DNA from: Candidatus Latescibacterota bacterium
GTDB lineage: Bacteria > Latescibacterota > UBA2968 > UBA8231
NCBI GenBank assembly: GCA_965208105.1
Contig: OZ242318.1
Location: forward strand, 192,001-256,000
Direction of reading: 5' to 3'
DNA length: 64,000 bases
The position numbers and the translations under genes are program-made. Within the stretch, counting starts at the first letter, position 1; each line of letters begins with the position of its first letter. The notes under the pieces were generated by a model. That model had not been told where the DNA came from and did no database searches. It saw only the letters and a list, made by a program, of their open reading frames with translations. Below are positions 13,574 through 63,620 of the stretch, one piece after another.

Positions 13574-13837
13574 ATGGAAAATCCGCAGAACGGCCAAAAG
13601 GACTACGAGAAAATCGCGGCGAATTGCCAGCGGGTACTGCGCCTGACCACGGGGTTGTTCCTGACAGCCTTCGTTCTGATCATTGCCATGACCTCATTTT
13701 CAACCGGGCTCTACGTGAGGCTCGCCGCCAAGGCGCTCTACTTCGTCATTCTGATTTCGGCACTGACTTCCATTGCAGTGTGGATCTATCGCAACAGGAC
13801 GGAGAAGCGCTGGCGCATTTCCTCCCGCATCATCTAG
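13574..13837 (+). CDS. Small hypothetical two-TM membrane protein
   Basis: GAGGGG upstream; two hydrophobic segments; stop coincides with the repeat end. Confidence 0.6.
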   Translation: MENPQNGQKDYEKIAANCQRVLRLTTGLFLTAFVLIIAMTSFSTGLYVRLAAKALYFVILISALTSIAVWIYRNRTEKRWRISSRII

Positions 13838-14000
13838 GTCCCGTCGCAGAAATATGTCGCCATTTTTCCACCGATCCATCCCGGCTCACGGCGTTGCCTT
13901 CGCTCGCCGTACACCACCGGTACGACTCGCTCAGGCGCCTTGTGAGCCTGGCGCCTCGGCGGCCCAATTGCGTCAACCTATCTCTGCGGCGGGACACTAG
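13834..14000 (+). mobile_element. MITE-like element, family A copy 1 (167 bp)
   Basis: Terminal IR CTAG-GTCCCGTCGCAGAAATA ... TATCTCTGCGGCGGGACAC-TAG; close copies at 17193 and 62026. Confidence 0.85.
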
Positions 14001-14003
14001 GTC

Positions 14004-14444
14004 ATGGAAACCATCGAGGCACATGGCAGGTTCCACGCCGCCCATCGCCAACTGGGATACGAGGGAAAGTGCGCCTTCGTCCACGGACATACCTGGCGCG
14101 GCACCTTCAAGGTCAGCGCCGAGTCCTTCCCACGCGACAAGGAGCTGGACATGTCGGTGGACTTCGGCGCCCTGAAGGATATCTTCAAGGGATTGGACCA
14201 CAAAATGCTGGTCTCGGAAAACGACGGGACCTTTCTGGACCCGGAACTCTTCGAGCCCGACGGGGTGGTCGTACTGCCCGGGGGCAATCCCAGCGTGGAG
14301 AATGTCGCGCTCTATTGTTTCACCAGGGCTGCTGAAGTCCTGAAGTCGCTGTTCCCGGAGCAGCGCATCGAGTACCATCTCGAGGTGACCATACAGGAGA
14401 CCGACAGCAATTTCTTTACGCTCAAGCGGTCCCTGCTCGTTTGA
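14004..14444 (+). CDS. queD: 6-carboxytetrahydropterin synthase (QueD/PTPS family)
   Basis: FHAAH, CAFVHGHTW, DFGALK, LDHK, NPSVENVA, ETDSN. Confidence 0.85.
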   Translation: METIEAHGRFHAAHRQLGYEGKCAFVHGHTWRGTFKVSAESFPRDKELDMSVDFGALKDIFKGLDHKMLVSENDGTFLDPELFEPDGVVVLPGGNPSVENVALYCFTRAAEVLKSLFPEQRIEYHLEVTIQETDSNFFTLKRSLLV

Positions 14445-14626
14445 ATCGCTTGGGAAGCCTCGAGGCCGGGTGGCTGATGGCGGGCAGATTCCGCATGTAG
14501 CTGGAAATCCGCGGCTCGATGGGCCTCCCCGTCGAGCCGGCCTTCCCATCATTCCCCTGGAACCCGGGCCCATGCGGCCTGGCGCATCCCGGCAGGAATG
14601 GAGTTAATCGAGAGAAGGCAGCTTCT

Positions 14627-14905
14627 ATGGCAAAAGAACGGTTGATGACCGCCGGGGAAGTGGCCTCCTACCTGCGCTGCTCCCTTTCCACCGTGCGCAG
14701 GATGGTGCGGCGCGACATGGTCCCCCACTATCGCCTCGGAAAACTGCTGCGCTTCCGCCGCAGCGAAATCGACGCCTGGCTCGCCTTTCACCACGGGGGA
14801 GAACAGCTTCCCGAAGCCAGGTCTTCCAGCGCCAATCCCAACCAGCTTTCCCTTTTCGGCTCCGAACAGAATCTTTCCTCAGACTCCCTGGCTGAAGGGC
14901 AGTAG
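14627..14905 (+). CDS. Excisionase/MerR-like HTH DNA-binding protein
   Basis: LMTAGEVASYLRCSLSTVRRMVRRDMVPHYRLGKLLRFRRSEIDAWL; C-terminal QLSLF. Confidence 0.85.
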   Translation: MAKERLMTAGEVASYLRCSLSTVRRMVRRDMVPHYRLGKLLRFRRSEIDAWLAFHHGGEQLPEARSSSANPNQLSLFGSEQNLSSDSLAEGQ

Positions 14906-14919
14906 CCGGGAGATCCCCC

Positions 14920-17196
14920 TTGTCCGCAGCGTTGAAAATCGAAAAGGCGGCGGTCCTGGGCGCGGGTGTCATGGGCAGCCAGATCTCCGCCCTGCTGGCC
15001 AACGCCGGTCTTCAGGTCGACCTCCTGGACGTGCCGCAGGACGGAGATGGCACCGGTCTGGCGCGGGCGGGCATCGAGCGCTCCCTTAAAGGGCGGCCGC
15101 CCGCTTTCTTCCTGCCGTCCATGGCGCGGCGGATCGTTCCCGGCAGCCTGGAAGACCTGGACGGCCTGGCTGAGGTGGATTGGGTCATCGAGGCCATCGT
15201 CGAAGATTTGCCTGCCAAGAAGGCTCTGCTCGCCAGGGTGGACGAGGTGGCCGGACCCGACCTCGTCATCAGCAGCAATACCTCGGGATTGTCCGTCAAC
15301 GCCCTGGTCGAGGACTGCTCCGCCAACCTGAGGAAACGTTTTCTGGGGACCCATTTCTTCAACCCTCCGCGCTACATGAAACTGGTCGAAATCGTCCCGG
15401 GGGCCGATACCGACCCGGGTATGCTCGAGGGAATGAAGCGGTTCCTGCGCGAGGAGTTGGGCAAGAGCGTTGTGGAAGCGCTGGATACCCCCAACTTCAT
15501 CGCCAACCGCCTGGGAATATTCACCCTCATGGAGGCCCTGCAGCGGATGGAGCGCGAGGGACTCGGGGTCGAGGAGGTGGATGCGGCCACCGGACCCCTG
15601 CTGGGAAGGCCTGCCAGCGCGACCCTGCGGCTGTGCGATATCATCGGGCTGGATACCCTGCTGCAGGTAGCCCGCACCGGCTACGAGAACCTGCCGGAAG
15701 ACAGTGGCAGGGAGGTCATGCAGGCTCCCGGTTTTGTGCGCGGCATGGTGCGCAGGGGGTTGCTGGGGGCAAAGGCCGGAGCCGGGTTCTATCGCAAGAC
15801 GAAATCCGGGATCGATGCCCTGGACCTGGAAACCTTAAGCTACCGGGCGATGAGACCGGCGGATCTGGGTGAGCTCCGGAAGGTGGGAAAGGGTGCGGAC
15901 CTGGGTTCGCGTCTGCAGGCGGTGTGGGACGACCAGGGGAAGCTGGGGGCCTATGGCCGCGCGAATCTCCTGCAGGTGCTGGCCTACGCCGCCGACCACG
16001 CCGCCGATATGGCCTCCGACATCCTCCAGGTGGACCGCGCCATGAGGTGGGGGTTCAACTGGGAGGCGGGACCATTCGAGCTGTGGGACCTGCTGGGGGT
16101 TGAAAGGGTGGCCTCCCGCATCGAGGCGGTGGCCGGCAGGACTCCCCACCTGGCGCATCTGCTCCAGGCTGCCGAAAAAGATCGGTTCTACCGGGAGAGC
16201 TCCGGCCGTCGCTGGTTCTTTGCTCCGGCCAGGGGGGAATACGCCGCGGTGAAAGAGAGTTCCGTGCTGCCGGGCAAGGCTCGGGTTCTACTGGAGAACG
16301 AGGGGGCCCGCCTGCTCGAGATGGAGGACGGCATAGGCCTCCTGGTTCTGCAGGGCAAGATGAACGCCGTGGGTCCTGCCACCCTGGACCTGCTGCGGCG
16401 CATCGGGGAGGAGCAGCCCTGTTCCGGGCTGGTGCTGAGCGGGACGGGAGGTTTGTTCTCGGTGGGAGCGGATCTCAAGTACCTTTTGGGCCTGATCGAC
16501 AACCTCGACTGGAATGGCATCGAGTCCTTCCTGCGCGCCTTTCAGGATGCCGTCACGGGGTTGCGCTACGCCCCCTTCCCGGTGGTGGCGGCCCCGCGGG
16601 GCATGGCCCTGGGCGGGGGATGCGAGTTCTGCATGGGGTCCGACGCCAGGGTCGCTGCGGCGGAGCTGCGCATGGGCCTGGTGGAGACCCGGGTGGGGTT
16701 GATCCCGGGGGCAGGCGGTTGCATGGAGGTGGTGAGAAGCTGGACAGATGACCCCGGATCGGGGTTCGACCTGGTTTTCTCCGGCAGGATCTCCGACAAC
16801 GCGCACCAGGCCAGGGACTGGCGATTGCTTCGCCGCGAAGACCCCGTTCTCATGAGCCCCGACCGACTGCTGCCGAGGGCGCTGGAGGAAATCAGGAAAC
16901 GGGCGGCTGGCTACGATCCCCCCGTTCGCGCTCTCCTGCCCGTTGCCGGCAGCGCCGGACTCCGGGAGCTCGAGGAGCGGATGGAGTCCCGGGCCGGGGA
17001 GCTCGCCCCCTACGACCGGGTCGTGGGACGCGCCCTCGCGCGCGTCCTGTGCGGGGGAGAGGGTCCGCCGAGGCGCGTGAAGGAGCAAGAGTTGCTGGAT
17101 CTGGAGCGCGAATCCTTCCTGCATCTGTGCGGCCAGGAACAGACGCGGGCGCGAATGGCGCACATGTTGAAAACGGGCAAACCCCTGAGGAATTAG
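14920..17196 (+). CDS. 3-hydroxyacyl-CoA dehydrogenase / enoyl-CoA hydratase family protein (FadN-like)
   Basis: VLGAGVMG, EAIVE, SNTSG, HFFNPPRYMKLVE, DTPNFIANR, ALGGGCE, C-terminal TGKPLRN. Confidence 0.92.
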   Translation: MSAALKIEKAAVLGAGVMGSQISALLANAGLQVDLLDVPQDGDGTGLARAGIERSLKGRPPAFFLPSMARRIVPGSLEDLDGLAEVDWVIEAIVEDLPAKKALLARVDEVAGPDLVISSNTSGLSVNALVEDCSANLRKRFLGTHFFNPPRYMKLVEIVPGADTDPGMLEGMKRFLREELGKSVVEALDTPNFIANRLGIFTLMEALQRMEREGLGVEEVDAATGPLLGRPASATLRLCDIIGLDTLLQVARTGYENLPEDSGREVMQAPGFVRGMVRRGLLGAKAGAGFYRKTKSGIDALDLETLSYRAMRPADLGELRKVGKGADLGSRLQAVWDDQGKLGAYGRANLLQVLAYAADHAADMASDILQVDRAMRWGFNWEAGPFELWDLLGVERVASRIEAVAGRTPHLAHLLQAAEKDRFYRESSGRRWFFAPARGEYAAVKESSVLPGKARVLLENEGARLLEMEDGIGLLVLQGKMNAVGPATLDLLRRIGEEQPCSGLVLSGTGGLFSVGADLKYLLGLIDNLDWNGIESFLRAFQDAVTGLRYAPFPVVAAPRGMALGGGCEFCMGSDARVAAAELRMGLVETRVGLIPGAGGCMEVVRSWTDDPGSGFDLVFSGRISDNAHQARDWRLLRREDPVLMSPDRLLPRALEEIRKRAAGYDPPVRALLPVAGSAGLRELEERMESRAGELAPYDRVVGRALARVLCGGEGPPRRVKEQELLDLERESFLHLCGQEQTRARMAHMLKTGKPLRN

Positions 17197-17361
17197 TGTC
17201 CCGTCGCAGAAATATGTCGCCATTATTGCGCCGATCCATCCCGGCTCACGGCGTTGCCTTCACTCGCCGTAGACCACGGGTTCGACTCGCTCAGGCGCCT
17301 TGTGAGCCGGGCGCCTCGGCGGCTCAATTTTCGACAACCTGTCTCTGCGACGGGACACCAG
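17193..17361 (+). mobile_element. MITE-like element, family A copy 2
   Basis: TTAGTGTCCCGTCGCAGAAATA ... TGTCTCTGCGACGGGACACCAG with the same core as copy 1. Confidence 0.85.
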
Positions 17362-17371
17362 GACGATATCC

Positions 17372-18811
17372 ATGGGCTTGAGGACAGCAACGGAATACAA
17401 GGAAGGCCTGCGCGACGGCCGCGTGGTTTACTCCCGGGGAGAGCAGGTGGAGGACGTGACCACCCATCCCGATCTGGGCATCGCGGTCGAGCACGCCGCG
17501 CTCGACTTCCACCTGGCCGAGGAACCCGCCCACCGATCCTTGATGACCTGGGAGGAAGAAGACGGAGGCGAGCTGTGCAGCCGCTACTTCAAGACCCCGA
17601 AAAATCCCGCGGACCTGCTCGACCGCCGGGAGATGATCGAGCGCTCGACCCGAGCCGGGGGCGGAGTGGTGCTGCTTATCAAGGAAATCGGCAGCGACGC
17701 CCTGTTCGCCCTGGATCTGATCAGTCACCGGATGGACCGCGAACTCGGCAGCGACTACAACTCCCGGGTCAAAGCCTATGGCCGCATGTGCAGGGAGCGG
17801 GACCTGAGCATGGCGGTCGCACAGACCGACGCCAAGGGCGACCGCAGCCTTTCTCCCTCGCAGCAGGAGCACCCGGACTACTACGTCCACATCGCCGCGG
17901 AGCGCCCGGACGGCATCGTGGTGCGCGGGGCCAAGGCGCACACCACCTGCGCCCCCTACGTCGACGAGTTGATCGTCCTGCCCACCCGCGCCGTAAAGGA
18001 GGAGGACGCTCCATGCGCGGTGGCCTTCGCCGTGCCGGTGAACAGTCCCGGAGTCAAGCTGATCGCCAGCCCGTTCGGATCGCCCCCCGCCAGCGCCTTT
18101 CACCACCCGGTGAGCTCGAAGCACCGCATGATCGATACGCTGACCGTCTTCGACGATGTATTCGTGCCCAGGGAGCGCGTCTTCCTGCAGGGGGAGTGGC
18201 CCTTCGCGGGACTGCTGGCCAACACCTTCGTGGAATTCCATCGCTTTACCGCGGTCTCCTACAAGCCTCCCCTTTGCGATTTGTTCATCGGCGCCGCATC
18301 GCTTCTGGCCGAATACAACGGCATCGACCGCGCCAGTCACGTGCGCGAGAAGCTCACGCAGCTGATCGCCTACTGCGAGACCGTGCGCGGGTTGAGCCTG
18401 GCCGCGGCGCACCAGTGCCGGGTCGCGGAGCCGGGAGTGGCCGTTCCCCATACCATTCTCACCAACCTGGCCAAGTACCACTTCGCCAGCAACTATCACC
18501 AGGCCGTAAGCCTGGTCCAGGACATCGCCGGCGGGCTTGTGGTGACCGGTCCCGCCGAGGAGGACTTGCAGAATCCGCAGACCCGGCCCTATATCGAGCG
18601 CTTTCTAGGGGGTAAAAAGGGGGTCGAAACAACCGACCGGCTCAAGGCCTTCAACCTGGTCAGGGACCTGACCGCCTCGGCCTTCGGCGGCTACAACGAG
18701 CTTCTGGCCATCCACGCCGAAGGGTCACTGGAGACCCAGAAGATCACCATCTTCAGGGACTACGACATCGAGCGCTGCAAGCAACTGGCCAGGGAGGCCA
18801 TCGGCCTTTAG
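17372..18811 (+). CDS. HpaB/AbfD-family flavoprotein (4-hydroxyphenylacetate 3-hydroxylase / 4-hydroxybutyryl-CoA dehydratase fold)
   Basis: EYKEGLRDGRVVY, QTDAKGDRS, GIVVRGAKAHTT, FDDVFVPRERVFL, QDIAGG. Confidence 0.85.
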   Translation: MGLRTATEYKEGLRDGRVVYSRGEQVEDVTTHPDLGIAVEHAALDFHLAEEPAHRSLMTWEEEDGGELCSRYFKTPKNPADLLDRREMIERSTRAGGGVVLLIKEIGSDALFALDLISHRMDRELGSDYNSRVKAYGRMCRERDLSMAVAQTDAKGDRSLSPSQQEHPDYYVHIAAERPDGIVVRGAKAHTTCAPYVDELIVLPTRAVKEEDAPCAVAFAVPVNSPGVKLIASPFGSPPASAFHHPVSSKHRMIDTLTVFDDVFVPRERVFLQGEWPFAGLLANTFVEFHRFTAVSYKPPLCDLFIGAASLLAEYNGIDRASHVREKLTQLIAYCETVRGLSLAAAHQCRVAEPGVAVPHTILTNLAKYHFASNYHQAVSLVQDIAGGLVVTGPAEEDLQNPQTRPYIERFLGGKKGVETTDRLKAFNLVRDLTASAFGGYNELLAIHAEGSLETQKITIFRDYDIERCKQLAREAIGL

Positions 18812-18936
18812 CAGCCCGATGATAAAGGTGCTCTGCAGGCGAGGCGAATCGAGGGGATTCGAGGAGGGAGCGCAACGCCGTATTCGACCGCCAGGGCCGG
18901 CCGCAGCCCGGATGGACTATTTCAACGGGCTGTTAA
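18808..18936 (-). mobile_element. MITE-like element, family B, internally deleted copy
   Basis: TTAGCAGCCCGATGATAAAG ... TATTTCAACGGGCTGTTAA; reverse complement of 43056-43223 lacking about 39 bp. Confidence 0.8.
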
Positions 18937-19700
18937 ATGCAGGTCCAGCCCCCGTCCACGAAGAGGGTGGACCCGGTTACGTAGCTGGCGGCTTCCGAGG
19001 CCAGGAAGACCACCGCCCAGGCCACTTCGTGGGGCTGGCCGAAGCGGCCCAGGGGTGTGCGGTCGACTACCTGCTTGCGCAGCAGCTCATTGCCGTGAAC
19101 CCCGGCGGTCATGGCGGTTTCGATGTAGGCGGGGGCCACGGCGTTCAGGCGCACTCCGAAGGGAGCCCACTCCACCGCCAGATCGCGGGTCAGCTGGCCG
19201 AGGGCGGCCTTGCCGGCGGAGTAAGGGGCAAGGCGGGGCAGGGCGCGCACCGCGCCGACCGAGGTGATATTGACGATGGACCCCCTGCGTCTTTGCACCA
19301 TTGCGCCGCCGATTTTGCGGAGAAGGCGGACGGCGGCGTTGAGATTGACCGCGAGGACCAGCTCCCACTCCTCCTTCTCGACTGCGGAGACGTTCTTGTA
19401 GATGGGGCTGATCGCCGCGTTGTTCACCAGGATGTCCAGTGGTTCGTCCCGCCGGGAAAGGTCCTCGAGAAGGCCGGCGGTGTCGTCGGGATCGCCTATA
19501 TCGCAGCGAAGGCCCCGGGCCTTGCCCCCCCGCGTGGCGATCGCCTCCACCACTTCCTCCAACTGCTCCTCGGTGCGGCTGGCCACCACCACTTCCGCGC
19601 CGGCCCGGGCAAGGGCCAGGGCGCAGGCGCGGCCGATGCCGCGGCCTCCCCCGGTTACGAGGGCGCGTTTGCCGCCGAGATCGAACGGGGTTGAATCCAT
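18933..19700 (-). CDS. Short-chain dehydrogenase/reductase
   Basis: TGGGRGIG, NNAA, YSAGK, NAVAP, DGG. Confidence 0.93.
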   Translation of the reverse strand: MDSTPFDLGGKRALVTGGGRGIGRACALALARAGAEVVVASRTEEQLEEVVEAIATRGGKARGLRCDIGDPDDTAGLLEDLSRRDEPLDILVNNAAISPIYKNVSAVEKEEWELVLAVNLNAAVRLLRKIGGAMVQRRRGSIVNITSVGAVRALPRLAPYSAGKAALGQLTRDLAVEWAPFGVRLNAVAPAYIETAMTAGVHGNELLRKQVVDRTPLGRFGQPHEVAWAVVFLASEAASYVTGSTLFVDGGWTCI

Positions 19701-19831
19701 AATGGGCCCTCCTTGAAATTCAGATTGCCGGCTGATCCGATTCCGGGTGCTGCTGATCCCCTGCGGCGCCGGGATCGCCTGCGCGGCGCATTCTAGCGCC
19801 CGGAAATTGCGGGAATTGCGGCGAAATAACG

Positions 19832-19960
19832 AAAAAAGGTTGAAAACTGTGAAAAAAGTACCGAAAAATCGAAAAAAGTGCTAAAAATGGTTGAATTATA
19901 AAGTTACATCATTTAGTTTTTATCCCCCTTTCATCCCCGGTTCATCCCCGAACCTCCCGA
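19832..19960. promoter_or_regulatory. Phased A-tracts followed by 11-bp-period ATCCCC direct repeats in a divergent promoter region
   Basis: A4-6 tracts at 19832, 19843, 19852, 19864, 19872 and 19883; ATCCCC at 19922, 19933 and 19944. Confidence 0.5.
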
Positions 19961-20159
19961 ACATCATCTCCCTAAAGCTATGTCGATTTAATTGGCATGC
20001 CCACGGCGCCGTGAATCGACTTGGTTAGACCTTCCCGTCCCGGCGGGAACGGCGCAGTTGCGTGTGTTTCGGAGAGTAATGGAATATGAATAATCGCCAA
20101 GGCCGTGAGTTTTCCCCTTCTTCCAGGCTGAGCGAGAACCAAGAGGAGGGCAGCAGGTT

Positions 20160-21005
20160 ATGACCGCGTTGCAGACCGATTCCCTGGTCGATCAGTACTT
20201 CCACGAAATCGAGGGATCGGTAGGACTCTCGTCCGAGGACGAGGTTCAGATAGCCAAGCAGATTCAGAAGGGGGATCATCGGGCGCTGTCCGATCTGGTC
20301 CGCGCCAATCTTCGCTTCGTCGTCAGCGTCGCCAAGCAGTATCAGAATCTGGGTTTGCCCCTTTCAGACCTGATCAATGAAGGCAACCTCGGGTTGATCA
20401 TCGCCGCGAAACGCTTCGACGGAACCAAGGGGTTCAAGTTCATTTCCTATGCGGTGTGGTGGATCCGCCAGTCCATACTACAGGCCCTGGCGGAACAATC
20501 CCGGATCGTGCGCCTCCCGCTCAACCGCATCGGAGAGCTGACCAGGGTGAACAAGGTACTCAACAAGTTGGAGCAGAGGCTGGGAAGGCCGCCCGAGGTG
20601 GAGGAGATCGCCACCGAGCTGGACCTGCAGGCCGGCGACATGGACCTGCTCTTGCGCCTGGCCCAGCGCCCGGTTTCGCTGGAGACGCCCTGCGACGACA
20701 GTGAGCCGGACCGTTGCCTGGGAGACCTCATCCCCGACGAGAGCAGGCCGTCCAGCGACGACGTGATCTCCGAGGACGAGCTGAAAGCCGAGATAAAGCG
20801 CGCCATGCACGCCCTCACCGAGGGCGAGGCCTGGATTCTGCGCATGTACTACGGGCTGGACGGGCACCAGGCCATGACCCTCGAGGAAATAGGCGTATAC
20901 GTGGGTCGGACCCGCGAGAGGGTGAGGCAGATCAAGGAGAAGGCCCTGCAGAAGCTGAGACACCCGGCGCGCAGCGAATCTCTCAAGGAACACTACGCCG
21001 ATTGA
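20160..21005 (+). CDS. RNA polymerase sigma factor, RpoD/SigA family (short form without region 1.1)
   Basis: ANLRFVVSVAKQY, DLINEGNLGL, GFKFISYAVWWIRQSILQAL, TLEEIG, TRERVRQI. Confidence 0.93.
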   Translation: MTALQTDSLVDQYFHEIEGSVGLSSEDEVQIAKQIQKGDHRALSDLVRANLRFVVSVAKQYQNLGLPLSDLINEGNLGLIIAAKRFDGTKGFKFISYAVWWIRQSILQALAEQSRIVRLPLNRIGELTRVNKVLNKLEQRLGRPPEVEEIATELDLQAGDMDLLLRLAQRPVSLETPCDDSEPDRCLGDLIPDESRPSSDDVISEDELKAEIKRAMHALTEGEAWILRMYYGLDGHQAMTLEEIGVYVGRTRERVRQIKEKALQKLRHPARSESLKEHYAD

Positions 21006-21028
21006 GCCGGAGGAGGCGCCCCGGCGTC

Positions 21029-21057
21029 TTGACATTTGCCGCCGGGGCGTCTATTTT
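21029..21057 (+). promoter_or_regulatory. sigma70 promoter for tRNA-Asn
   Basis: TTGACA-17 bp-TATTTT, 30 bp before the tRNA. Confidence 0.65.
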
Positions 21058-21086
21058 GGTTTGCTTGCGAGCGAAGGTGAGTTTCT

Positions 21087-21162
21087 TCCGGCGTAGCTCA
21101 GTTGGCAGAGCGGGTGGCTGTTAACCACCATGTCGTAGGTTCGAGCCCTACCGCCGGAGCCA
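21087..21162 (+). tRNA. tRNA-Asn (GTT)
   Basis: Acceptor stem TCCGGCG/CGCCGGA; D-arm TAGCTCAGTTGGCAGAGC; anticodon arm GGTGG-CTGTTAA-CCACC; T-loop GTTCGAG; encoded CCA. Confidence 0.97.
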
Positions 21163-21202
21163 GTTTCTCGACCGCCGATACAGGCGGCTCGACAGTTTTC
21201 AC

Positions 21203-21240
21203 GAGACCCCGCGGGGGAGACCCCGGCGGGGTCTTGTCGT
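21203..21240 (+). terminator. GC-rich hairpin after the tRNA
   Basis: GAGACCCCGCGGGG-gaga-CCCCGGCGGGGTCTT followed by a weak T-rich tail. Confidence 0.55.
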
Positions 21241-21300
21241 GTGCGGCGGTTGAGCAAATCCGCCTGATGCAGTAGTTTATTTGGTCAAAGGAGACCTCCC

Positions 21301-23076: not shown

Positions 23077-23141
23077 CGGGTCCATGCCCCGGCCGGCCGC
23101 CGGGAGGCCGGGCCTGTCCCCAAGACGAAAGGATACCGACG

Positions 23142-24221: not shown

Positions 24222-24240
24222 GTTTCAGGGGAGAGGGCTG

Positions 24241-24732: not shown

Positions 24733-24778
24733 CCGCCCGCGCCCGTACCCACACGAGAGAAGAAACGGAGGCTCAATC

Positions 24779-25882: not shown

Positions 25883-26228
25883 CCTCGGCGCCGCTTCGGT
25901 TTTCGAGGAGGGCAGGCCCTACCGCGTCGAGCTCGACGGCAAGGCCCTGGTGCTGGTGCGCCGGGGGGACCGGTTTTTCGCCCTGCGCGACACCTGCCCG
26001 CACCAGGGAGCCCGGTTGTCGGACGGCCGCGTGGGGGGGACCGCGCTCGAGTGCATGCCCGGAGACGGCATTCCCTACGGCCGCGACGGGGAGATCCTGA
26101 CCTGTCCCTGGCACGGCTGGGAGTTCGAGCTTGGCAGCGGCAAGTGCCTTGTCAATCCGCAGCGGGTGCGGGTGCGGTCCTATCGCGCCTGGGTCGAGGC
26201 GGACCGGGTGCTGGTCGACCTGGGTTAG
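25863..26228 (+). CDS. Rieske [2Fe-2S] ferredoxin
   Basis: CPHQG ... CPWHGWEF; overlaps the amidohydrolase 3' end. Confidence 0.92.
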   Translation: MPSSVRDLGAASVFEEGRPYRVELDGKALVLVRRGDRFFALRDTCPHQGARLSDGRVGGTALECMPGDGIPYGRDGEILTCPWHGWEFELGSGKCLVNPQRVRVRSYRAWVEADRVLVDLG

Positions 26229-26277
26229 TGTCCCGCCGCAAAAGACAGGTAGACAGAGCTGGGCGGACGGGGCACCC
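26225..26277 (-). repeat. Truncated family A element (right end only)
   Basis: TTAGTGTCCCGCCGCA..AGGT.GAC...TGGGC matches the reverse complement of the copy 1 right end. Confidence 0.65.
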
Positions 26278-26280
26278 CAC

Positions 26281-33216: not shown

Positions 33217-33227
33217 GGAAAAGGTCC

Positions 33228-43055: not shown

Positions 43056-43223
43056 CTCGCAGCCCGTTGAAAAAGTCCATCCGGGCGGCGGCCGGCCCTG
43101 GCGTTCGAATACGGCGTTGCGCTCCCTCCCCGAATTCACTCGATTCGCCTCGGTCGCACGCCTTGCCTTCGACCGCCATGCCTCGGCCTCGCCTGCAGAG
43201 CAACTTTATCAACGGGCTGCTAG
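43056..43223 (+). mobile_element. MITE-like element, family B full-length copy (168 bp)
   Basis: Terminal IR GCAGCCCGTTGAAAAAG ... CTTTATCAACGGGCTGC-TAG; core GGCGTTG...CGCCTTG shared with family A. Confidence 0.8.
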
Positions 43224-48905: not shown

Positions 48906-48928
48906 GCGGGCCGCTGCGGCCGGATGCC

Positions 48929-51533: not shown

Positions 51534-51542
51534 GCGACGGGA

Positions 51543-52919: not shown

Positions 52920-53034
52920 ATTCGACCGGCAGCGGTGTTGCCGGCGCGCCGCGAATGTTGCCTTTCGGCCCGCTCCCGGCGGCCGCCCGGGCCCCGGGGT
53001 TCGACCGGAATGAACAGTTTATGAGGAGACCGGG

Positions 53035-53925: not shown

Positions 53926-53944
53926 TTACTCAAGGAAAGGGCAC

Positions 53945-55102: not shown

Positions 55103-55151
55103 GAGTTCGGCTGCATGGAAGCGCAGGTGCCGGGCGGCGAGGCCGCTCCTC

Positions 55152-56732: not shown

Positions 56733-56781
56733 TGGGATTCTCCTTTTCAATCCATGAGAGGGCGGATTCGAGGCGGGTCGG

Positions 56782-57801
56782 ATGAGAGATAAGCAAAGGG
56801 ATATGGGCTGTCAAGACAGCCGGCGGGACCGTGACGGGAAGGGCACCTGCTCACCGGACGAAGACTACGAGCCGCCGTTTCCACTGTTCAACGGCCACTT
56901 GCAGACCATCGTCCCCGGTATCCTGCGGCGGGTCCGGGGGGTGAGGTTCCGGCGCGAGAGGATAATCACCGGGGACGACGACTTCCTGGACCTGGACTGG
57001 TCCCGGACCGGGGCGGGGAAGCTCGCGGTCGTCTCCCACGGCATGGAGGGCAACAGCCGCAGGCCCTACGTCCTGGGCATGGTAAAGGCCCTCAACGCGG
57101 CAGGCTGGGACGCCCTGGCCTGGAACCTGCGCGGCTGCAGCGGCGAACCCAACAGACAGCTGCGTTTCTACCATGCGGGGGCCACCGACGATCTCGCGGC
57201 GGTGATCAGCCACGCCCTCTCCCGCGGGACCTACGGGGCCGTCGTCCTGGTGGGATTCAGCCTGGGTGGAAACCTGGTGCTGAAGTACCTCGGGGAGCGC
57301 CGCGATCAGCTGCCGCCGCCGATCCGGAAGGCCGCGGTCTTCTCCGTGCCCTGCGATCTGCGCTCCGGGGCCGTGGAGCTGGACAAGTGGCAGAACGGCA
57401 TCTACCGGAGGCGGTTTCTTCGCACCCTCAAGCACAAGGTGCGGGAGAAGGCCGCCTCGATGCCGGGCCTGCTCAGCGCCGCGGGGCTGGACGAGGTCCG
57501 CACCCTGCGCCACTTCGACGAGCGCTACACCGCCCCCCTCCACGGCTTCGGCAGCGCGGAGGACTACTGGCGCCGCAGCAGTTCCCTGCACTTCCTCGAG
57601 GGGATCCGGGTGCCGGCCCTGATCGTCAACGCGCGCAACGATCCCCTGCTGGGAGAGGGCTGCTATCCGGTGGAGGAAGTGAAGGACCAGCCCTTCCTGC
57701 GGCTGAAGATGCCCTTGCAGGGGGGGCACGTGGGGTTTCCCGGCGGCGGGTTGTTGTGGTCGGAGAGACTGGCGGTTTCGTTCTTCACCGGCGGCGGGTA
57801 G
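56782..57801 (+). CDS. Alpha/beta hydrolase, YheT family
   Basis: GHLQTI, DFLDLDW, HGMEG, RGCSGEPN, GFSLGGN, GGHVGF. Confidence 0.9.
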   Translation: MRDKQRDMGCQDSRRDRDGKGTCSPDEDYEPPFPLFNGHLQTIVPGILRRVRGVRFRRERIITGDDDFLDLDWSRTGAGKLAVVSHGMEGNSRRPYVLGMVKALNAAGWDALAWNLRGCSGEPNRQLRFYHAGATDDLAAVISHALSRGTYGAVVLVGFSLGGNLVLKYLGERRDQLPPPIRKAAVFSVPCDLRSGAVELDKWQNGIYRRRFLRTLKHKVREKAASMPGLLSAAGLDEVRTLRHFDERYTAPLHGFGSAEDYWRRSSSLHFLEGIRVPALIVNARNDPLLGEGCYPVEEVKDQPFLRLKMPLQGGHVGFPGGGLLWSERLAVSFFTGGG

Positions 57802-57849
57802 AGGCGCCGCAGGCGGGAGCCGGGTGGCGCAGGTCCTCGGCCTAACCGC

Positions 57850-58932
57850 TCAAGGCAGCCACTTCTCGTAGAATCTCTGCCAGTTGCGGTACATGACGTT
57901 CGCGGCGTCGTCCTCGCTGTAGCCGCGGTCCAGCAGAATGGGGGCCACCTTCTGGTAGTCCGCCACCGTGTCCACCTCCCAGGGCGCGCCCTCGACACCC
58001 CCCTGCCCGTCGGTGTCGCCGCCGATGGCGGCGTGGAGCGAGTTTCCGGCCAGCTGGCAGACGTGGTCGATGTGATCGGCGAGATGGCCCAGGGTGACGT
58101 CCTCGCGCCGGAAGTGATCGCGCCGCGAAAATCCGCCGGAATTCGACCAGTCGAGCACACCACCGGGATGGATCATCCAGGTATCCATGGAGGCCCCGAT
58201 GACCCCGCCGCGCTCGATGACGGCGCCGAGCTGCTCGTCGCTGAACTGGCGCACTCCGGGGGCCAGCGCGCGGCAGTTCTGATGGCTCGCCAGCACCGGT
58301 CCGGAGTAGATCTCCAGGGCTTCCCAGAAGCTCTCGTCGGAGGCGTGGGTCAGGTCGAGCAGCATGCCGCAGCTTTCCATCTCCTTGAGCAGGCCGGCGG
58401 CCGGTTCCTTCAGTCCGCCTTCGGTGCCGGTGCCCCAGGCGTAGGTGCTGGGTCCGTAGTGGGTCAGGCTGACCACCCGCACCCCGTCGTCCCACCACTC
58501 GTGCACCTGATCCGGCCAGAGAATGGGGTCTGCGCCCTCCATCCCGAGGATGAAGCCCACGGGCAGGGCTTCGGCGTCGTTTTCCCCTTCCCACCGGTCC
58601 ATGTGCCGGGACAGGTCCTGCCCGGTCGTCAGGATGGCGGCTTCCCCGCGCCGCGCCAGCACGTGGTAGTAGGCCACCTGCCCCTTGGCCGCCCCGTAGG
58701 CGGCCTCGCCGCCGCGGTACCCGGAGGCGACACTGTCCCGGCGCAGTCGGCGCACGGTGAATTTCACCAGCGCCGCGGCGATCCGGGCGCGGCGCAGCTC
58801 GGGCAGGGAGGCCATGGCAACCACCTCGGCATCCCCCCCGGCGGCGCGCACCTTCTCCAGGGGCAAGGTGAGGTCGCGGTTGATCTCCATGGCGCCGAAG
58901 GCCATGGGATAGTCGCCGTCGAAAATGAGCAT
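57850..58932 (-). CDS. Membrane dipeptidase (peptidase M19) family protein
   Basis: MEGAD, LDLTHASD, ASHQNCRAL, RQFSDEQL, DHIDHVCQLAG, IGGDTDG. Confidence 0.88.
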   Translation of the reverse strand: MLIFDGDYPMAFGAMEINRDLTLPLEKVRAAGGDAEVVAMASLPELRRARIAAALVKFTVRRLRRDSVASGYRGGEAAYGAAKGQVAYYHVLARRGEAAILTTGQDLSRHMDRWEGENDAEALPVGFILGMEGADPILWPDQVHEWWDDGVRVVSLTHYGPSTYAWGTGTEGGLKEPAAGLLKEMESCGMLLDLTHASDESFWEALEIYSGPVLASHQNCRALAPGVRQFSDEQLGAVIERGGVIGASMDTWMIHPGGVLDWSNSGGFSRRDHFRREDVTLGHLADHIDHVCQLAGNSLHAAIGGDTDGQGGVEGAPWEVDTVADYQKVAPILLDRGYSEDDAANVMYRNWQRFYEKWLP

Positions 58933-58962
58933 GATGGTCAGTCCTTTCTCTCCGCCGCTAAC

Positions 58963-60471
58963 TTACCAGTACTGCTGTGCCCAGTGGGTCATGCGCTGGT
59001 CCTCGTGGCGCATGCGCCAGCGCAGCAGTTTCTGGCAGTAGCGCGCCACGGTGGCGGCATATTCAGGTTTGCCGGCCAGATCATCGAATTCCCCCGGGTC
59101 GGCGCGGAGGTCGAAGAGCAGGGGCGCCATGGTGGGGTCGGCGAACTGCACGTACTTGAAGCACCGGTCCCGCACCACCCAGAGCAGGTGCTCGTCAGGG
59201 TCGGTCTCCCCGGGCCGGCGCAGGGCTTTCTGGCGATAGTCGAACTCGTGGAAAACCTCGGGCTTGGGCACGTAGCCGGGATCGCCCCGCAGCAGTCCCA
59301 GCAGACTGCGGCCCTGGAAGCGGTCGGGAATGTCGACCCCTAGCCAATCCAGGATCGTGGGGGCCGAATCGATGGATTCGACGAAATGGTCCAGGCGCTG
59401 TCCGCGCGTGCCTTCAGCCTCGGCGAGAGGATCGCGCACGATGCAGGGAATTCGCAGGGCCCCGTCGTAGAAATGGCCCTTTCCGAAAAGGTAGTGATCT
59501 CCAAGGTACTCGCCGTGGTCGGAGGTGAAGATTATCAGGGTGTTGTCCCACTGCTCCGTCTCCCGCAGCGCCTGGAAAAGGAGCCCGATGTTGTCGTCCA
59601 CCTCGCTGATCATGCCGTAGTAGATGGCCGCCATCTCGCGCCGATGCTTCTCGTTCTGCAGCTGCGGTTGGTCGCCTTTCTCCCATTGCCGCTGCCAGTA
59701 GGGATGAGAGGGATCGAGCTCCTGGGGCCTGCGGGTGGCGGCGGGCAGGGAGGCCGGGTCGTAGAGGCGGTGGTATGGGGGGCAGCAGATATGCGGCGAG
59801 TGGGGCTTGATGTAGTTGAGGCTCAGTACCCAGCCTCTGCCTCCTTGTCCCCCCCTTTCCGCCTCGATGTACTCGATGGCCCTCTCGGTCAGGAAACGGC
59901 ACTCGCTGTCCTCCCTGGGGTATTTGGCGGGGTAGTAAATCTCCAGATGGTCTCCCGGTCCGTCGGCGGGGACGTCGGGGGAGTGAATGGCGTCGAATTT
60001 GAGGAGCTCTTCGTCGTAGCCCTTCTGCCGCAGCGACTCGAAGTACTCCTCGCTGTCGTACTCGTGGTAGAGAACGCGCTCGAATCCCGGCAGCACGTTG
60101 GCGTAGTGAAGGGAAGTCTTGCGCGGGTCTCCGGGGGCGAGAAGGGCAGGGTCCACGGCGTAGTCGTTGTAGCCGATCAGGCCGGGACGGTAGCCTTCCC
60201 GGCTCAGGGCGAAGCCGAAGTTGTCCTCGGCGTCTAGCAGGGGGGTGCAGTTTTGCGGGGAGCGGGTGGAGCACATGTAGCGCCCGGTGTAGATGCACAT
60301 GCGGCTGGGGCCGCAGGGAGCGGACTGGTTGAAGCATGAGGTGAAGGTGGTCCCGGAGGCCGCCAGCCGGTCCAGGTTGGGGGTCTTGATCACCTCGTTG
60401 CCGTTGCAGCCGAGGCAGTCGGCGCGAAACTGGTCGGCGATGATGAACAGCACGTTCAACGGTTTTGCCAT
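58963..60471 (-). CDS. Sulfatase family (phosphonate monoester hydrolase-like)
   Basis: NVLFIIADQFR, TPNLD, CGPSR (CxPxR), KPHSP, TSDHGE. Confidence 0.9.
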   Translation of the reverse strand: MAKPLNVLFIIADQFRADCLGCNGNEVIKTPNLDRLAASGTTFTSCFNQSAPCGPSRMCIYTGRYMCSTRSPQNCTPLLDAEDNFGFALSREGYRPGLIGYNDYAVDPALLAPGDPRKTSLHYANVLPGFERVLYHEYDSEEYFESLRQKGYDEELLKFDAIHSPDVPADGPGDHLEIYYPAKYPREDSECRFLTERAIEYIEAERGGQGGRGWVLSLNYIKPHSPHICCPPYHRLYDPASLPAATRRPQELDPSHPYWQRQWEKGDQPQLQNEKHRREMAAIYYGMISEVDDNIGLLFQALRETEQWDNTLIIFTSDHGEYLGDHYLFGKGHFYDGALRIPCIVRDPLAEAEGTRGQRLDHFVESIDSAPTILDWLGVDIPDRFQGRSLLGLLRGDPGYVPKPEVFHEFDYRQKALRRPGETDPDEHLLWVVRDRCFKYVQFADPTMAPLLFDLRADPGEFDDLAGKPEYAATVARYCQKLLRWRMRHEDQRMTHWAQQYW

Positions 60472-60492
60472 GGGAACAGCTCCGTCCGGTCC

Positions 60493-61260
60493 TTATTCCT
60501 GTGACTTGCGCCAGAAGCTCTCCAGCCGGTGCCGGGGATTCCAGCCCAGCAGGCGCCTGGTCTTCTCGTTGGAGAATTTGCGGTGGGGAATATCGGTCGA
60601 GACGTTGAATGCTTCGCACCGGGAGGGCAGGGTTTCGAGGTCGACCTCCAGGGCGCAGCGGATCGCCTCGGCCGCGTCCGACCAGGTGACCATGAACGGA
60701 GCATAGTCCTCCGGGTGGTCCCCCGGATCGAAGAAATTATAGAACAGCAGCCAGATGAGATAGACGTCGTGGTGTTCGGTGAATACGCGGCTCAGCTCCA
60801 GCCCCAGCGCCTTGGTGAAGGGATACATCTCGATGCCCGGATGGGGCGGCAGGTCGGGATGGATGTCGTAGTCGAAGCGCTCGTAGTCGCGGCCCTGGAC
60901 GGTGAAATGGGGGCCGCTGCCGATGACCCTGCGGATACCGTGCTCCACCGCCGCCGCCATGATGTTGTGGGAGCCCAGGACGTTGACGTCGAAGGACTTT
61001 CTGCGGTGGTCGCGCAGCACCGAAAGATTGACGATGGCGTCCATCCCCTCGGCGGCGGCCATGACCTGCCCCGGGACGCTCACGTCCACCTCGTGGTACT
61101 GGTGGCGGTCCTGGGTCTGGTCCGGGCGGAAACCGGTCCGGTGGCCGAAAATCCCCTTGGGCCCGGCTATGTCGGCGAGTTTGAGCTCGTAGTGGCCCTC
61201 CAGGGCCCTGAGGGCGTGGGGCCCCAGCATGCCGTTGGCTCCCAGGATCAGCACCTTCAT
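60493..61260 (-). CDS. NAD-dependent epimerase/dehydratase family oxidoreductase
   Basis: GANGMLG, YPFTK. Confidence 0.85.
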   Translation of the reverse strand: MKVLILGANGMLGPHALRALEGHYELKLADIAGPKGIFGHRTGFRPDQTQDRHQYHEVDVSVPGQVMAAAEGMDAIVNLSVLRDHRRKSFDVNVLGSHNIMAAAVEHGIRRVIGSGPHFTVQGRDYERFDYDIHPDLPPHPGIEMYPFTKALGLELSRVFTEHHDVYLIWLLFYNFFDPGDHPEDYAPFMVTWSDAAEAIRCALEVDLETLPSRCEAFNVSTDIPHRKFSNEKTRRLLGWNPRHRLESFWRKSQE

Positions 61261-61982
61261 GGCGTTCGTCCGCCTCTGCCGGCGGGTTTGTAGCCCAGCT
61301 TCTTCCGCGCCGCGCGAATGGGAAAGCGGGCGCCGGGCAGGGCCGACTGGACGTGGAACAGGCCCCAGCTCGCCGAAGCCGGGGAAGATCCGCCTTTAGT
61401 TGCCTGGCCCCAGGTGTCCAGGTCGAGGGCTGCTTCCACCGCCTGCAGGGCGTCCTCCAGGTGCAGGGAGGAGGAGCTTGCCGGGGTCTGGCCGGGGCGG
61501 ACCAGATCACCCAGGCGCAGGCATGCGACCGCGATGCGTCCTTCCCGGGCGAACTCCCTGCAAACCAGTTCGCCCAGGTGGCAGCAGAGCACCTCGGGCT
61601 CGGTGCTGGGACAAGGTCTCCAGTGCTCGGTGACCTTCAGGTCTTCTCCGTACTGCGCCATCAGGGCCAGGGAGCTCAGGTATACCAGCAGGGGCACCTT
61701 TTCCTCGCTGGCGGCGTGGAGCAGGTTGTAGGTGCAGCGGGTGTGATAGTCAATCTGGCCGGCGGGGCTGGCGCCGGGGACCAGGCGGCCCCCGTGGATC
61801 AGCGCATCCATGCCGCGGACGAGATCCCTGGTGCCGCTGCCGTGGTCCAGGTCGCTGCGGACGAATTCAAGCTCGGTGGAAACGGGGGCGCGGTCGGTGA
61901 GGCGGACCTGGTGGCTGTCCTTCAAGGAATCGGCCAAGTCCTGGGAAAGGTCGAGGCAGGCGCCCGTGATCAGAATGTTCAA
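61257..61982 (-). CDS. Epimerase/dehydratase-fold protein with degenerate cofactor and catalytic motifs
   Basis: MNILITGACLDL, GMDALIH, TYNLL, VYLSS, ARKKLGYKP; ATGA overlap with the next gene. Confidence 0.7.
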   Translation of the reverse strand: MNILITGACLDLSQDLADSLKDSHQVRLTDRAPVSTELEFVRSDLDHGSGTRDLVRGMDALIHGGRLVPGASPAGQIDYHTRCTYNLLHAASEEKVPLLVYLSSLALMAQYGEDLKVTEHWRPCPSTEPEVLCCHLGELVCREFAREGRIAVACLRLGDLVRPGQTPASSSSLHLEDALQAVEAALDLDTWGQATKGGSSPASASWGLFHVQSALPGARFPIRAARKKLGYKPAGRGGRTP

Positions 61983-62025
61983 ATGTCAGGTCTCCCGCGG
62001 TTTCCTCTCCGGAGGCTGCTCGAAG

Positions 62026-62192
62026 CCAGTGTCCCGTCGCAGAAACAGGTCGCCATTTTCCACCGATCCATCCCGGCTGACGGCGTTGCCTTCACTCTCC
62101 GTGCACGGCGGGTACGACTTGCTCAGGCGCCTTGTGAGCCTGGCGCCTCGGCGGCCCAATTGCGTCAACCTTTCGCTGCGACGGGACACCAG
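62026..62192 (+). mobile_element. MITE-like element, family A copy 3
   Basis: CCAGTGTCCCGTCGCAGAAA ... TTTCGCTGCGACGGGACACCAG with the same core. Confidence 0.85.
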
Positions 62193-62355
62193 GCGGCCAC
62201 AATATAGATTGCGGCAGGGTGCCCTGCAAGGCGGCAGGGGCCCATTGGCGCGGAATCCCCGGGCGGGAATCGTTTCTATTCTTTGCCGAGGCCGTGCCAA
62301 GGCGTATATTTGTCGTTTCGTCCAGACCGGAAACAGCCTTGGGGAGTAAATACAG

Positions 62356-63294
62356 ATGTCCACACGAGTGGTTTATTTCAACGGCGAGTTCGTACCCGAG
62401 CGCGATGCGCGCATATCGATCTTCGATTGCGCCCTGCTGTTCGGCGACATGGTCTTCGAGATGACCCGTACCTTCCGCCACAAGCCCTTTCGCCTGCGCC
62501 AGCATCTCGACCGGCTCTACGGGTCGCTGCGCTACGCCCGCATCGATTGCGGTCTCGACATCGATGCGATGGAGGCGGCGACCTTCGAGACGGTGGAGCG
62601 CAATCTGCCCGTTCTGGGCGATCTGGACTTTCTGATCATGCACAACGTCACCCGCGGGGCCCTGCACTACTATGACGGCCTGGTGCGCGAGGGCGTGGCG
62701 CCGGTGGTCACCATCAACATCTTTCCCCTGGTTCGGCATCTCGGAGCGGTGGCAGCGAGGTACGCCGAGGGCGCCCATTGTGTCGTCACTCCACAGCAGT
62801 CGGTGCCTTCCCGTTTCATCGACCCCAAGGCCAAGAACCGCAGCCGCATCTTCTATAAGCTCGCCGACCTGCAGGCCGAGCAGATGGAGCCGGGAGCCAT
62901 GCCGCTGTTGACCGACGAGCACGGCTTCCTCACCGAGGGGTCGGGCAACAACTTCTTCATGGTGAGGGACGGGGAAATAGTCACCCCCAAGGGGCACAAT
63001 ATTCTGCGTGGAGTCTCGCGGTCCGCCTGCATGGACCTGGCCGAAAAGCTGGGCCTGCCGCTGCGCGAGGCCGATATAGAGCCCTACGACGTGCGCGCCG
63101 CCGACGAGGCCTGGTGCACCAGCACCATCGTCTCCATGATCCCCGTATGCCGCTTCAACTTCCAGGAGGTGGGGAACGGAAGACCGGGTCCCGTCTACCG
63201 CCGCCTGCTCGGCGCCTGGTGCGAGGAGGTGGGGGTGGATATCCCGTCCCAGGCACTCCAGTACGCCTCCTGCATGGATAGCTGGACCCCCTGA
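62356..63294 (+). CDS. PLP-dependent aminotransferase class IV (IlvE/Dat-like)
   Basis: VYFNGEFV, GDMVFE, HLDRL, catalytic Lys in KAKNRSR, EGSGNN, ILRGVSR, ADEAW. Confidence 0.9.
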   Translation: MSTRVVYFNGEFVPERDARISIFDCALLFGDMVFEMTRTFRHKPFRLRQHLDRLYGSLRYARIDCGLDIDAMEAATFETVERNLPVLGDLDFLIMHNVTRGALHYYDGLVREGVAPVVTINIFPLVRHLGAVAARYAEGAHCVVTPQQSVPSRFIDPKAKNRSRIFYKLADLQAEQMEPGAMPLLTDEHGFLTEGSGNNFFMVRDGEIVTPKGHNILRGVSRSACMDLAEKLGLPLREADIEPYDVRAADEAWCTSTIVSMIPVCRFNFQEVGNGRPGPVYRRLLGAWCEEVGVDIPSQALQYASCMDSWTP

Positions 63295-63420
63295 GCAATG
63301 CCCGCCCGAGGCAGCCCAGGTTCCCCGCGGTCCTCTCCGGACAACCTGGCCGTCTATCCTGCCAGGGCGGTGGAAGGGAGCCTTGCGCCCTTCCGGCGCC
63401 AGGAGAAATTCCCCTGGATC

Positions 63421-63454
63421 CAAGCAGGTCGTTGAAAAAGTCCATCCGGGCTGC
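63421..63454 (+). repeat. Left-end fragment of family B element
   Basis: GCAGGTCGTTGAAAAAGTCCATCCGGGCTGC matches 43059-43090; ends where the next element begins. Confidence 0.75.
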
Positions 63455-63620
63455 TAGTGCCTGCTTGCGCAATTCCGCGTGAATTCGGCCGCCGCTGCAT
63501 CCCGGCTCGCGGCGTTGCCCTCCCTCGCCGTACACTCTAGGTACGACTCGCTCAGGCGCCTTGCGAGCCGGGCGCTTCTGCGCCCTCGTTCGTACGCATA
63601 ATTACGCAAGCAGGCACTAG
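63454..63620 (+). mobile_element. MITE-like element, family C (family A core with different terminal IRs, 167 bp)
   Basis: CTAGTGCCTGCTTGCG.AATT ... AATT.CGCAAGCAGGCACTAG; core CCCGGCTCGCGGCGTTGCC...GTAC..GTACGACTCGCTCAGGCGCCTTGCGAGCCGGGCGC. Confidence 0.85.

Follow-up and report, generated by a model that had tools for sequence, protein, structure and literature searches.

Among described bacterial repeats, the enterobacterial repetitive intergenic consensus (ERIC) comes closest to the elements reported here. Its consensus is printed in Table 1a of PMC2759123, a comparison with ISfinder names ERIC, IRU and RU-1 as MITEEc1_IS630 (bioRxiv 10.1101/2024.01.18.576219), and the table of one review lists it for Enterobacteriaceae only (PMC3184786). 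Effects of ERIC on mRNA stability that depend on its orientation and act through an RNase E site are described in passages on Yersinia (PMC2229807, PMC3184786). [quoted passage not shown] Here, we analyzed a 64,000-nucleotide stretch of the genome of a Candidatus Latescibacterota bacterium (contig OZ242318.1, positions 192,001 to 256,000; the window), which holds six copies and two remnants of palindromic non-autonomous transposons of the MITE kind. They belong to three families, A, B and C, and carry a common structured module at the tip of their hairpins. We consider it probable, with appreciable doubt, that they are ERIC-like, widely spread structured MITEs that keep this module, that family B is an ERIC-like interior between IS5-type ends, and that the module has a role at the RNA level.

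Anatomy of the elements and of their central module

The six copies lie where the initial annotation had placed them. With boundaries given without target duplications, family A comprises A1 (13837–13997, 161 bp), A2 (17196–17358, 163 bp) and A3 (62029–62189, 161 bp), family C a single copy (63457–63617, 161 bp) and family B the copies B1 (43060–43219, 160 bp) and B2 (18812–18932, 121 bp), the last on the minus strand and all others on the plus strand. The length of 167–169 bp that had been given for all full copies includes the duplications; without them these copies measure 160–163 bp, and B2 is not full length. Their size, the terminal repeats that reach the flanking TA or NTAN, the duplications, the many copies and the lack of a transposase gene inside them identify the elements as MITEs. 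Full elements fold as single long imperfect hairpins, with minimum free energies of −80 to −83 kcal/mol and z-scores of −5.5 to −6.8 against dinucleotide shuffles (A2, −83.3 and −6.34; C, −81.9 and −5.51; B1, −80.1 and −6.79).

Two types of integration can be distinguished. The 26 end-pairs of family A mostly have CTA before and TAG after the element, as in A1 (TCTA / TAGG), whose left tip, GGTCCC instead of GTGTCCC, is one base shorter. Some copies have CA or TG in place of TA: A3 has CA on both sides (GCCA / CAGG) and A2 TA on the left and CA on the right (ATTA / CAGG). The C copy is flanked by TA. For family B, in which each element was counted in both orientations, the ends being symmetric, 30 of 60 end-pairs have identical four-nucleotide flanks, all of the form NTAN (TTAG 8, CTAA 7, TTAA 4, and others). 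As bases 1 and 4 of the flanks agree on the two sides of the element, the duplication has a length of 4 bp and is not plain TA; in B1 (CTCG / CTAG) it has one mismatch. A TA duplication is characteristic of the IS630 / Tc1-mariner type, with CTAG as the target of IS630, and a 4-bp duplication of YTAR-like targets of the IS5 group. By their ends and duplications, then, A and C fit the first type and B the second. The proposal that the core rides on several transposase systems holds for two integration signatures, TA inside CTAG and 4-bp NTAN, not for three.

The three sets of ends had likewise been described as unrelated, which is right for B; A and C, however, are weakly similar in their left arms. 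When A2 is compared with C, 68 of 78 positions are identical in the core block (reached by 0/500 shuffles), 27 of 41 in the left arm (7/500) and 26 of 44 in the right arm (74/500), and both families begin, after the TA, with GTG. They look like diverged relatives within one TA-type superfamily, with only B of a different type. Similarity of A and C to B by BLAST within the window is weak (a 17-nt match, E about 0.1). Family B has a different duplication, and inside its ends lies a CCATCCGGGCT-ACGGC stretch that resembles CCATCCCGGCTCACGGC of family A, and it is for this reason that B is read as an ERIC-like interior between IS5-type ends.

The module common to A, B and C is about 60–85 nt long. 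Of the sequence CGGCGTTGC..TC.CTC..CG-hairpin-..CTCG.TC...CGCCTTG, the 5' half is present in all six window copies and the 3' half in five, in agreement with the shared centre first described. In B2, which matches B1 over 93 nt (94% identity) and over 37 nt (95%), the 3' half was lost by a deletion between two GCCTCG direct repeats. The compensatory changes that had been noted are also there: the apical stem is CGTAC/GTACG in A1 and C and CGAAT/ATTCG in B1 and B2, and the basal stem is GGCTCAC/GTGAGCC in A and GGCTCGC/GCGAGCC in C. The apical stem is partly broken in A2 and preserved through G.T in A3. In the orientation in which the module was first drawn, it consists of a basal stem, a C:G pair, a TT bulge, GGC paired to GCC, a GTT bulge, GC and two variable pairs, an internal loop and the apical stem.

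Pairing in the core was measured over 87 non-identical matches to a search pattern that leaves the stems themselves unspecified. In this set, 85.5% of cells are paired, against 28–46% when partners are slid, and the covariation score is 0.416, against at most 0.108 slid; it is reached by 0/500 shuffles, a test that related copies inflate. With one sequence for each of 34 families, the values are 79.9% against 29–40%, and 0.431 against at most 0.112, again with 0/500 shuffles. The number of double-change pairs does not discriminate, being reached by 393/500 shuffles for the 87 sequences and by 69/500 for the 34 families. Selection for pairing of the core stems is thus supported, as had been suggested, by covariation well above the slid and shuffled controls. 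A covariance model of the core gives 121 matches in the window and the searched loci, 27 of them lacking the search pattern yet keeping GCGTTGC and GCGCCTTG. In the window, it matches A1 at 13873–13958 (90.9 bits), A2 at 17233–17318 (84.6 bits), A3 at 62065–62150 (77.3 bits), C at 63494–63579 (85.2 bits), B1 at 43096–43181 (62.9 bits) and B2 (29.6 bits); with filters off, the whole window gives no match below E = 0.03 other than these six. A weak match at 57684–57733 was discarded, as it lies inside an open reading frame (ORF; 56758–57801) called by G+C at third codon positions (GC3).

The strand that folds is not the one first drawn but its reverse complement. There, the variable basal stem is followed by C, an AA bulge, GGC, GC and two covarying pairs, and what had been an internal loop turns into a helix in which two conserved tandem G.A/A.G pairs enclose one C-G and one covarying pair, before the variable apical stem-loop; the 3' side returns through an AAC bulge and GCC-G. 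Along this helix, whose 3' partners were left free by the search pattern, the six positions are G.A (80/87), A.G (79/87), a covarying pair (G-C 34, C-G 26 and G.U 12 of 87), C-G (84/87), G.A (79/87) and A.G (80/87). Counted over 25 pairs in one representative of each of the 34 families, there are 59 G.U and 21 A.C (p 2.5e-5), or 37 and 7 in the securely aligned part; 22 of the 34 families have more G.U, four show the reverse and eight tie. Of 121 copies, 111 fold more stably on the reverse strand, with a mean advantage of 13 kcal/mol. This strand is favoured in 95 copies against 21, of 119, for the core alone and in 108 against 11 for the arms including the core flanks.

Relation to ERIC and spread over other genomes

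For a comparison with ERIC, a partial copy between metR and metE of MG1655 (locus L091) was located through ERIC primers; it led to 118 records of a plasmid collection, and six ERIC copies (L094–L099) were compared. Like our elements, ERIC is flanked by TA and the whole of it forms an imperfect hairpin. Its centre has the same parts in the same order, namely a stem, C, (N)GC, a GTT bulge, a G/C helix of 3 bp, a loop rich in pyrimidines (TTCGCTCA / ATTCACTCA) and a hairpin, and on the return side GCC, a TT bulge and G. Read on the folding strand, the bulge signature C-AA-GGC / GCC-AAC-G and purine-rich loops are common to both. In the 3-bp helix, the middle pair is flipped from C:G in the window families to G:C in ERIC, with pairing preserved. 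The strict window form CGGCGTT...GCCTTG is present in one ERIC copy (L097), and the reverse strand is more stable in all six. ERIC shares the central bulged helix, the TA flanks and the better-folding strand with our elements. A descriptor of the bulged helix gives 95 matches within known copies and 13 elsewhere in 3.39 Mb: three in ERIC copies, five in further units or duplicates of known copies and about five that are background. ERIC differs from the window elements in its length of 127 bp and its ends (TATACCCGTCATA...), and from the module in its longer apical stem and in 4–5 additional bases that, on each side, separate the loop from the bulged helix.

On the reverse strand, all six ERIC copies match Rfam family RF02818 (V_AS5, Vibrio RNA AS5, typed as an antisense RNA gene) with E 1.7e-7 to 0.056, below the gathering score, whereas A2, B2 and the elements of L016, L029 and L081–L089 do not match it at E up to 1–10. 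Weaker matches of the minus strand of L094–L099 are to Ysr49, isrH and CssrA; these three small RNA families and V_AS5 seem to have been built on ERIC-type repeats. At the gathering threshold, Rfam matches none of the window elements (A1, A3, C and B1 were compared at this threshold only), and at E up to 1–10 Rfam 15 finds nothing on the elements of L016, L029, L081–L089 and window positions 17100–19000. In the literature on ERIC outside Enterobacteriaceae, shared MITE interiors and chimeric MITEs, we found no description of this module, and a literature search with the core octamers returned primer lists only.

Other known structures fit less well. The attC sites of integrons have paired RYYYAAC / GTTRRRY boxes at the foot of their hairpin; in the module, judged by eye, GTT and AAC do not pair with each other but are bulged, and the basal stem is free to vary. 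An origin of the core from 5S rRNA was rejected, as the local score of 21 stands at the shuffles' 95th percentile (20) and the highest shuffle scores are 23–24. SRP RNA, a sigma-54 promoter, a K-turn, an oriT-like site and a ribozyme were rejected by eye only, neither defining motifs nor an Rfam match being present. To our knowledge, none of Correia / NEMIS, RUP and Nezha-type MITEs carries this core. REP and REPIN sequences are similar to the module as GC-rich bulged hairpins used on one strand and in forming head-to-head doublets, which here occur in gammaproteobacterial elements. A Salmonella REP (L097:271–313) is laid out like the core's foot (stem, GGC...GCC, TT bulge, stem), and the core model aligns it at 7.7 bits (E 0.2), which is not significant. 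REPs are 20–40 nt long and have no terminal inverted repeats and no target duplications. Identity with REP or REPIN was therefore rejected, as the elements have both and no Y1 (RAYT) transposase is found among 46 window ORFs. The GTAG/CGTC tags of REPs are named in PMC3733652. The bcr1 repeat of the Bacillus cereus group shares with the module compensatory changes that preserve structure at the RNA level (PMC3184786), but has 5-bp duplications and a different sequence and is restricted to one genus group.

The distribution of the core, a lower bound, comes from a scan of one genome for each species with a pattern that specifies 23 bases common to the window copies. At least 89 loci under seven phylum-level labels match this pattern, 80 of them with titles. 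Among the matches listed, titled loci come from metagenome-assembled genomes (MAGs) of Latescibacterota (40), Gammaproteobacteria/Pseudomonadota (13; Guyparkeria, Halothiobacillaceae, Arhodomonas, Ectothiorhodospiraceae), Gemmatimonadota (8), 'Deltaproteobacteria' (8), Actinomycetota (6; Nocardioides, one Streptomyces and one MAG), Planctomycetota (2) and Thermoanaerobaculia (1). Two further Streptomyces matches, by eye in coding sequence, were taken as chance, one of which still scores 30.5 bits with the model. The module thus crosses phylum labels, unlike the MITE clusters of a survey in which 97.4% of prokaryotic clusters are given as confined to one genus (10.1101/2024.01.18.576219). In plasmid and phage collections, A1, A2, B1 and the Guyparkeria element are all without a match.

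Families A, B and C are all found in Latescibacterota MAGs, and across the loci the same core lies within palindromic elements, most of them flanked by TA, whose ends are of at least a dozen kinds. The element of Guyparkeria is about 270 bp long, with terminal repeats of 31–35 nt and a second, inverted core unit. One hybrid (L024) combines a left end of the C type with a right end of the A type. No fixed edge delimits the conserved block: it reaches into the CATCC/CTCG flanks in Latescibacterota and delta-labelled families and is reduced to the bulged helix in Nocardioides and Guyparkeria. As its edges vary between families, descent with unequal constraint accounts for it better than a discrete mobile core.

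Neighbouring genes, remnants and associated repeats

The window has a G+C content of 65.8%, and 40 of the 46 ORFs chosen by GC3 match ordinary chromosomal Pfam families (RNase Y, Dxr, ProRS and a sigma factor among them). A1 is placed between dxr and a PTPS-family gene, its end only 6 nt upstream of the ATG of the latter, so that the ribosome-binding region of this gene (13998–14006) now falls within the A1 end. A2 lies between a fadB-like gene, whose TAG stop codon overlaps the left TA of the element, and an HpaB-like gene. Both flanks of B2 (TTAG / TTAA) overlap stop codons of convergent genes, and the right TA of C belongs to the stop codon of the minus-strand ORF at 63617–64000. B1 is situated between two minus-strand genes, for an AMP-binding enzyme and a MetE-like protein, and A3 between divergent genes for an epimerase (minus strand) and a class IV aminotransferase (plus strand). 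At least one flank belongs to a neighbouring gene's stop codon in four of the six copies, as is expected when targets that contain TA are rare in a GC-rich genome. A3 also gives rise to a long spurious ORF on the minus strand (62092–63423) that terminates within it. ORFs of at least 100 amino acids over the elements are only long high-GC frames, judged spurious by GC3. The sole Rfam match in the window at the gathering threshold is a tRNA gene (21087–21159, 67 bits).

Two remnants complete the set. A solo B-type end of 30 nt on the plus strand (63425–63454; 90% identity over 30 nt, 22/22 identical to B1 in BLAST) directly abuts the TA at which C sits, and is what remains of a B element or of a nested insertion. 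A 48-nt segment on the minus strand (26228–26275), with 15- to 16-nt matches to A ends (E 0.008–0.46), is probably an A-type remnant that consists of two degenerate A-type ends without a core, preceded by TA; its right half was judged by eye.

In the gammaproteobacterial TA-flanked elements of about 270 bp, the two core units stand head to head about 20 nt apart (L063:5038–5229, L029:9985–10177, L037:3838–4026 and L007:3–194). A conserved small ORF in these elements was considered and rejected, as the frame differs between L029 and L030. A composite of an A-like TA element nested in B is, by eye, nearly identical in records labelled Latescibacterota and Gemmatimonadota (L008, L021, L034/L078, L050, L054 around 10000, and L087 at 250–540). 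Its presence under two phylum labels means one of three things: horizontal transfer, spread as one unit or mislabelled bins. In L087, a thiamine pyrophosphate (TPP) riboswitch (RF00059; 38–127, 71.4 bits, above gathering) is located about 100 nt upstream of the composite.

A second palindromic repeat, CCTGYCTGCG...CGCAGGCAGG, about 30–60 nt long (mostly 28–35), is present in eight copies in Latescibacterota loci (L004:3627, L004:3879, L013:3435, L013:3495, L013:16705, L015:9950, L019:14773 and L041:7948). Several copies lie within A- or B-type elements, one of them directly after CGGCGTTG in a core, and the repeat looks like a REP-like mobile hairpin. The left arm of some A and B copies is replaced or interrupted by other short hairpins, such as GGGAACGGCTTTGCCGTTCCC and GAACGCTCG.AAGAGCGT (L068:~10070–10170, L044:12323–12408, L038 and L082).

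Role and origin of the module

In the interpretation of our elements as ERIC-like structured MITEs, A and C insert at TA, usually within CTAG and often at the TA of a stop codon, and B with a 4-bp NTAN duplication in the IS5-type manner. The module is old and widespread, and is preserved while arms and ends diverge or are replaced. Of this picture, the covariation, strand asymmetry, anatomy, spread over phyla and target duplications are observed. Family B may have arisen when an ERIC-like interior came between IS5-type ends. The module would act single-stranded, most likely as RNA when the element is transcribed, and might serve as a signal for processing, for stability or for the binding of a protein, of the kind reported for ERIC in Yersinia. 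By this analogy, a single-stranded, probably RNA, role is favoured.

Several observations weigh against this interpretation. Significant similarity in sequence to the 127-bp ERIC consensus was detected neither by the covariance model nor by nhmmer or local alignment. The model scores 8.8, 4.6 and 4.1 bits on three of the six ERIC copies (E 0.1–1.8), at the right place and on the right strand, and gives nothing in L091; nhmmer misses the partial copy in L091; and local alignments of module and ERIC have z-scores of 0 to 2.0, with 12–106 of 200 shuffles as high. The bulged-helix descriptor, written after ERIC had been seen, matches three of the six copies. That the core might belong to a described family, a possibility the initial annotation had allowed for, is half borne out: the ERIC centre has the same signature, but profile searches are not significant and Rfam yields no match.

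Regarding mobility, no transposase is encoded among the 46 window ORFs, and no autonomous partner, of the kind that had been called for with each end type, is found in the window or in 1.46 Mb of locus flanks, so that both transposase assignments derive from ends and duplications. A search of the flanks for TA with 18-nt inverted repeats 0.7–2.6 kb apart gave no transposase-bearing element, scans for end-pairs gave only neighbouring MITEs or chance pairs, and one candidate (L060) was rejected, its proteins being ordinary-looking and without sign of a transposase by eye. Nor were empty sites found: the window and the loci have three stretches in common, with 69–72% identity to Latescibacterota loci, none of them at an element.

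Regarding the module, 23 core positions are fixed by the search pattern in most sequences, which makes their invariance circular; a cross-family hidden Markov model test is circular for the same reason and was given no weight. Tandem G.A and G.T pairs are tolerated by DNA hairpins as well and hence do not prove RNA. In the outer arms, the strand bias is weak, both in transitions (65 against 43, p 0.04; by family, 12 against 5, p 0.14) and in purine-purine mismatches (98 against 70, p 0.04). A role in host mRNAs would lead to a bias in orientation to genes, but crude GC3 gene calls give an unbiased distribution of 34 sense, 25 antisense, 18 convergent, 15 divergent and 25 locus-edge copies. Orientation to local GC skew is not significantly biased either (60 against 46), and a bias to the replication strand was rejected on the same counts. 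With orientation unbiased in both respects, the strand asymmetry belongs to the element and not to its genomic setting.

A bolder version of the ERIC link, possible in our opinion but doubtful, is that the ERIC-type centre, as an irregular helix with two A-rich bulges and two tandem G.A pairs that is read on one strand, is an autonomous functional module, far older and wider than ERIC and repeatedly re-packaged by unrelated transposase systems on account of a function of its own, with ERIC as one enterobacterial branch of a pan-bacterial family. Candidates for its role would be a signal for processing or stability, or a site bound by a protein that is conserved across bacterial phyla.

The main alternative is that the core acts as DNA in transposition, as a hairpin or cruciform or as the site of a structure-recognising or DNA-bending host protein, and helps to bring the ends together. 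Such a core would serve any transposase, and elements with different ends would keep it; its constant place at the centre of the palindrome and its retention across ends of two integration types are as expected, and the unbiased orientation to genes suits a function independent of host transcription. Correia elements carry a central IHF site, which offers a precedent. For these elements, a review table lists a DNA motif (PMC2229807). A duplex binding site, however, does not need pairing that works on one strand only, nor tolerance of G.U and G.A; by eye, the core has no IHF-like consensus, and its carriers span phyla with different nucleoid proteins. We know of no single-strand step in DDE cut-and-paste transposition. 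On balance, we regard a role as DNA as unlikely, if still worth weighing.

It is very improbable that the module has no function, the three families descending from one element in which the core drifts slowest or is homogenised by recombination between families. The weak similarity of the A and C left arms (27/41, with 7/500 shuffles) would fit common descent, and hybrids such as L024 indicate that the shared core mediates exchange. Against this reading stand a core identical at 68 of 78 positions between A2 and C when the arms are near background, a module under seven phylum labels with unrelated arms, compensatory changes that preserve the stems and the different duplication length of B.

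Very improbable, too, is a separately mobile core, which the initial annotation had proposed; it would be REP-like and moved by a tyrosine HUH transposase or similar into the centres of unrelated MITEs. The insertion of other small palindromes (the eight-copy CCTGYCTGCG repeat) into A and B copies, the two head-to-head cores of Guyparkeria and Ectothiorhodospiraceae elements and the non-significant alignment of the L097 REP might point to it. Against it, the edges of the conserved block are not constant, the core always occupies the tip of the hairpin and never another part of an arm, no family is seen with and without it at a clean junction, no copy without palindromic arms was identified (no systematic check was made), the core-less A remnant and B2 look like deletions, and the 46 window ORFs include no Y1 transposase.

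For annotation, the ERIC-like MITEs described here matter because in GC-rich genomes they sit on stop codons and beside start codons and create long spurious ORFs. It is usual to define MITEs by their ends and to treat what lies inside as junk; in these elements, the interior is the constant part, and it covaries, prefers one strand and crosses both phylum labels and transposase types. Should the ERIC link hold, it would allow a far deeper alignment of this repeat, the role and mobility of which are open, and the structure and binding partner of the repeat would become testable. If the family is indeed pan-bacterial, the function of ERIC, unexplained since 1990–91, would be open to comparative analysis.

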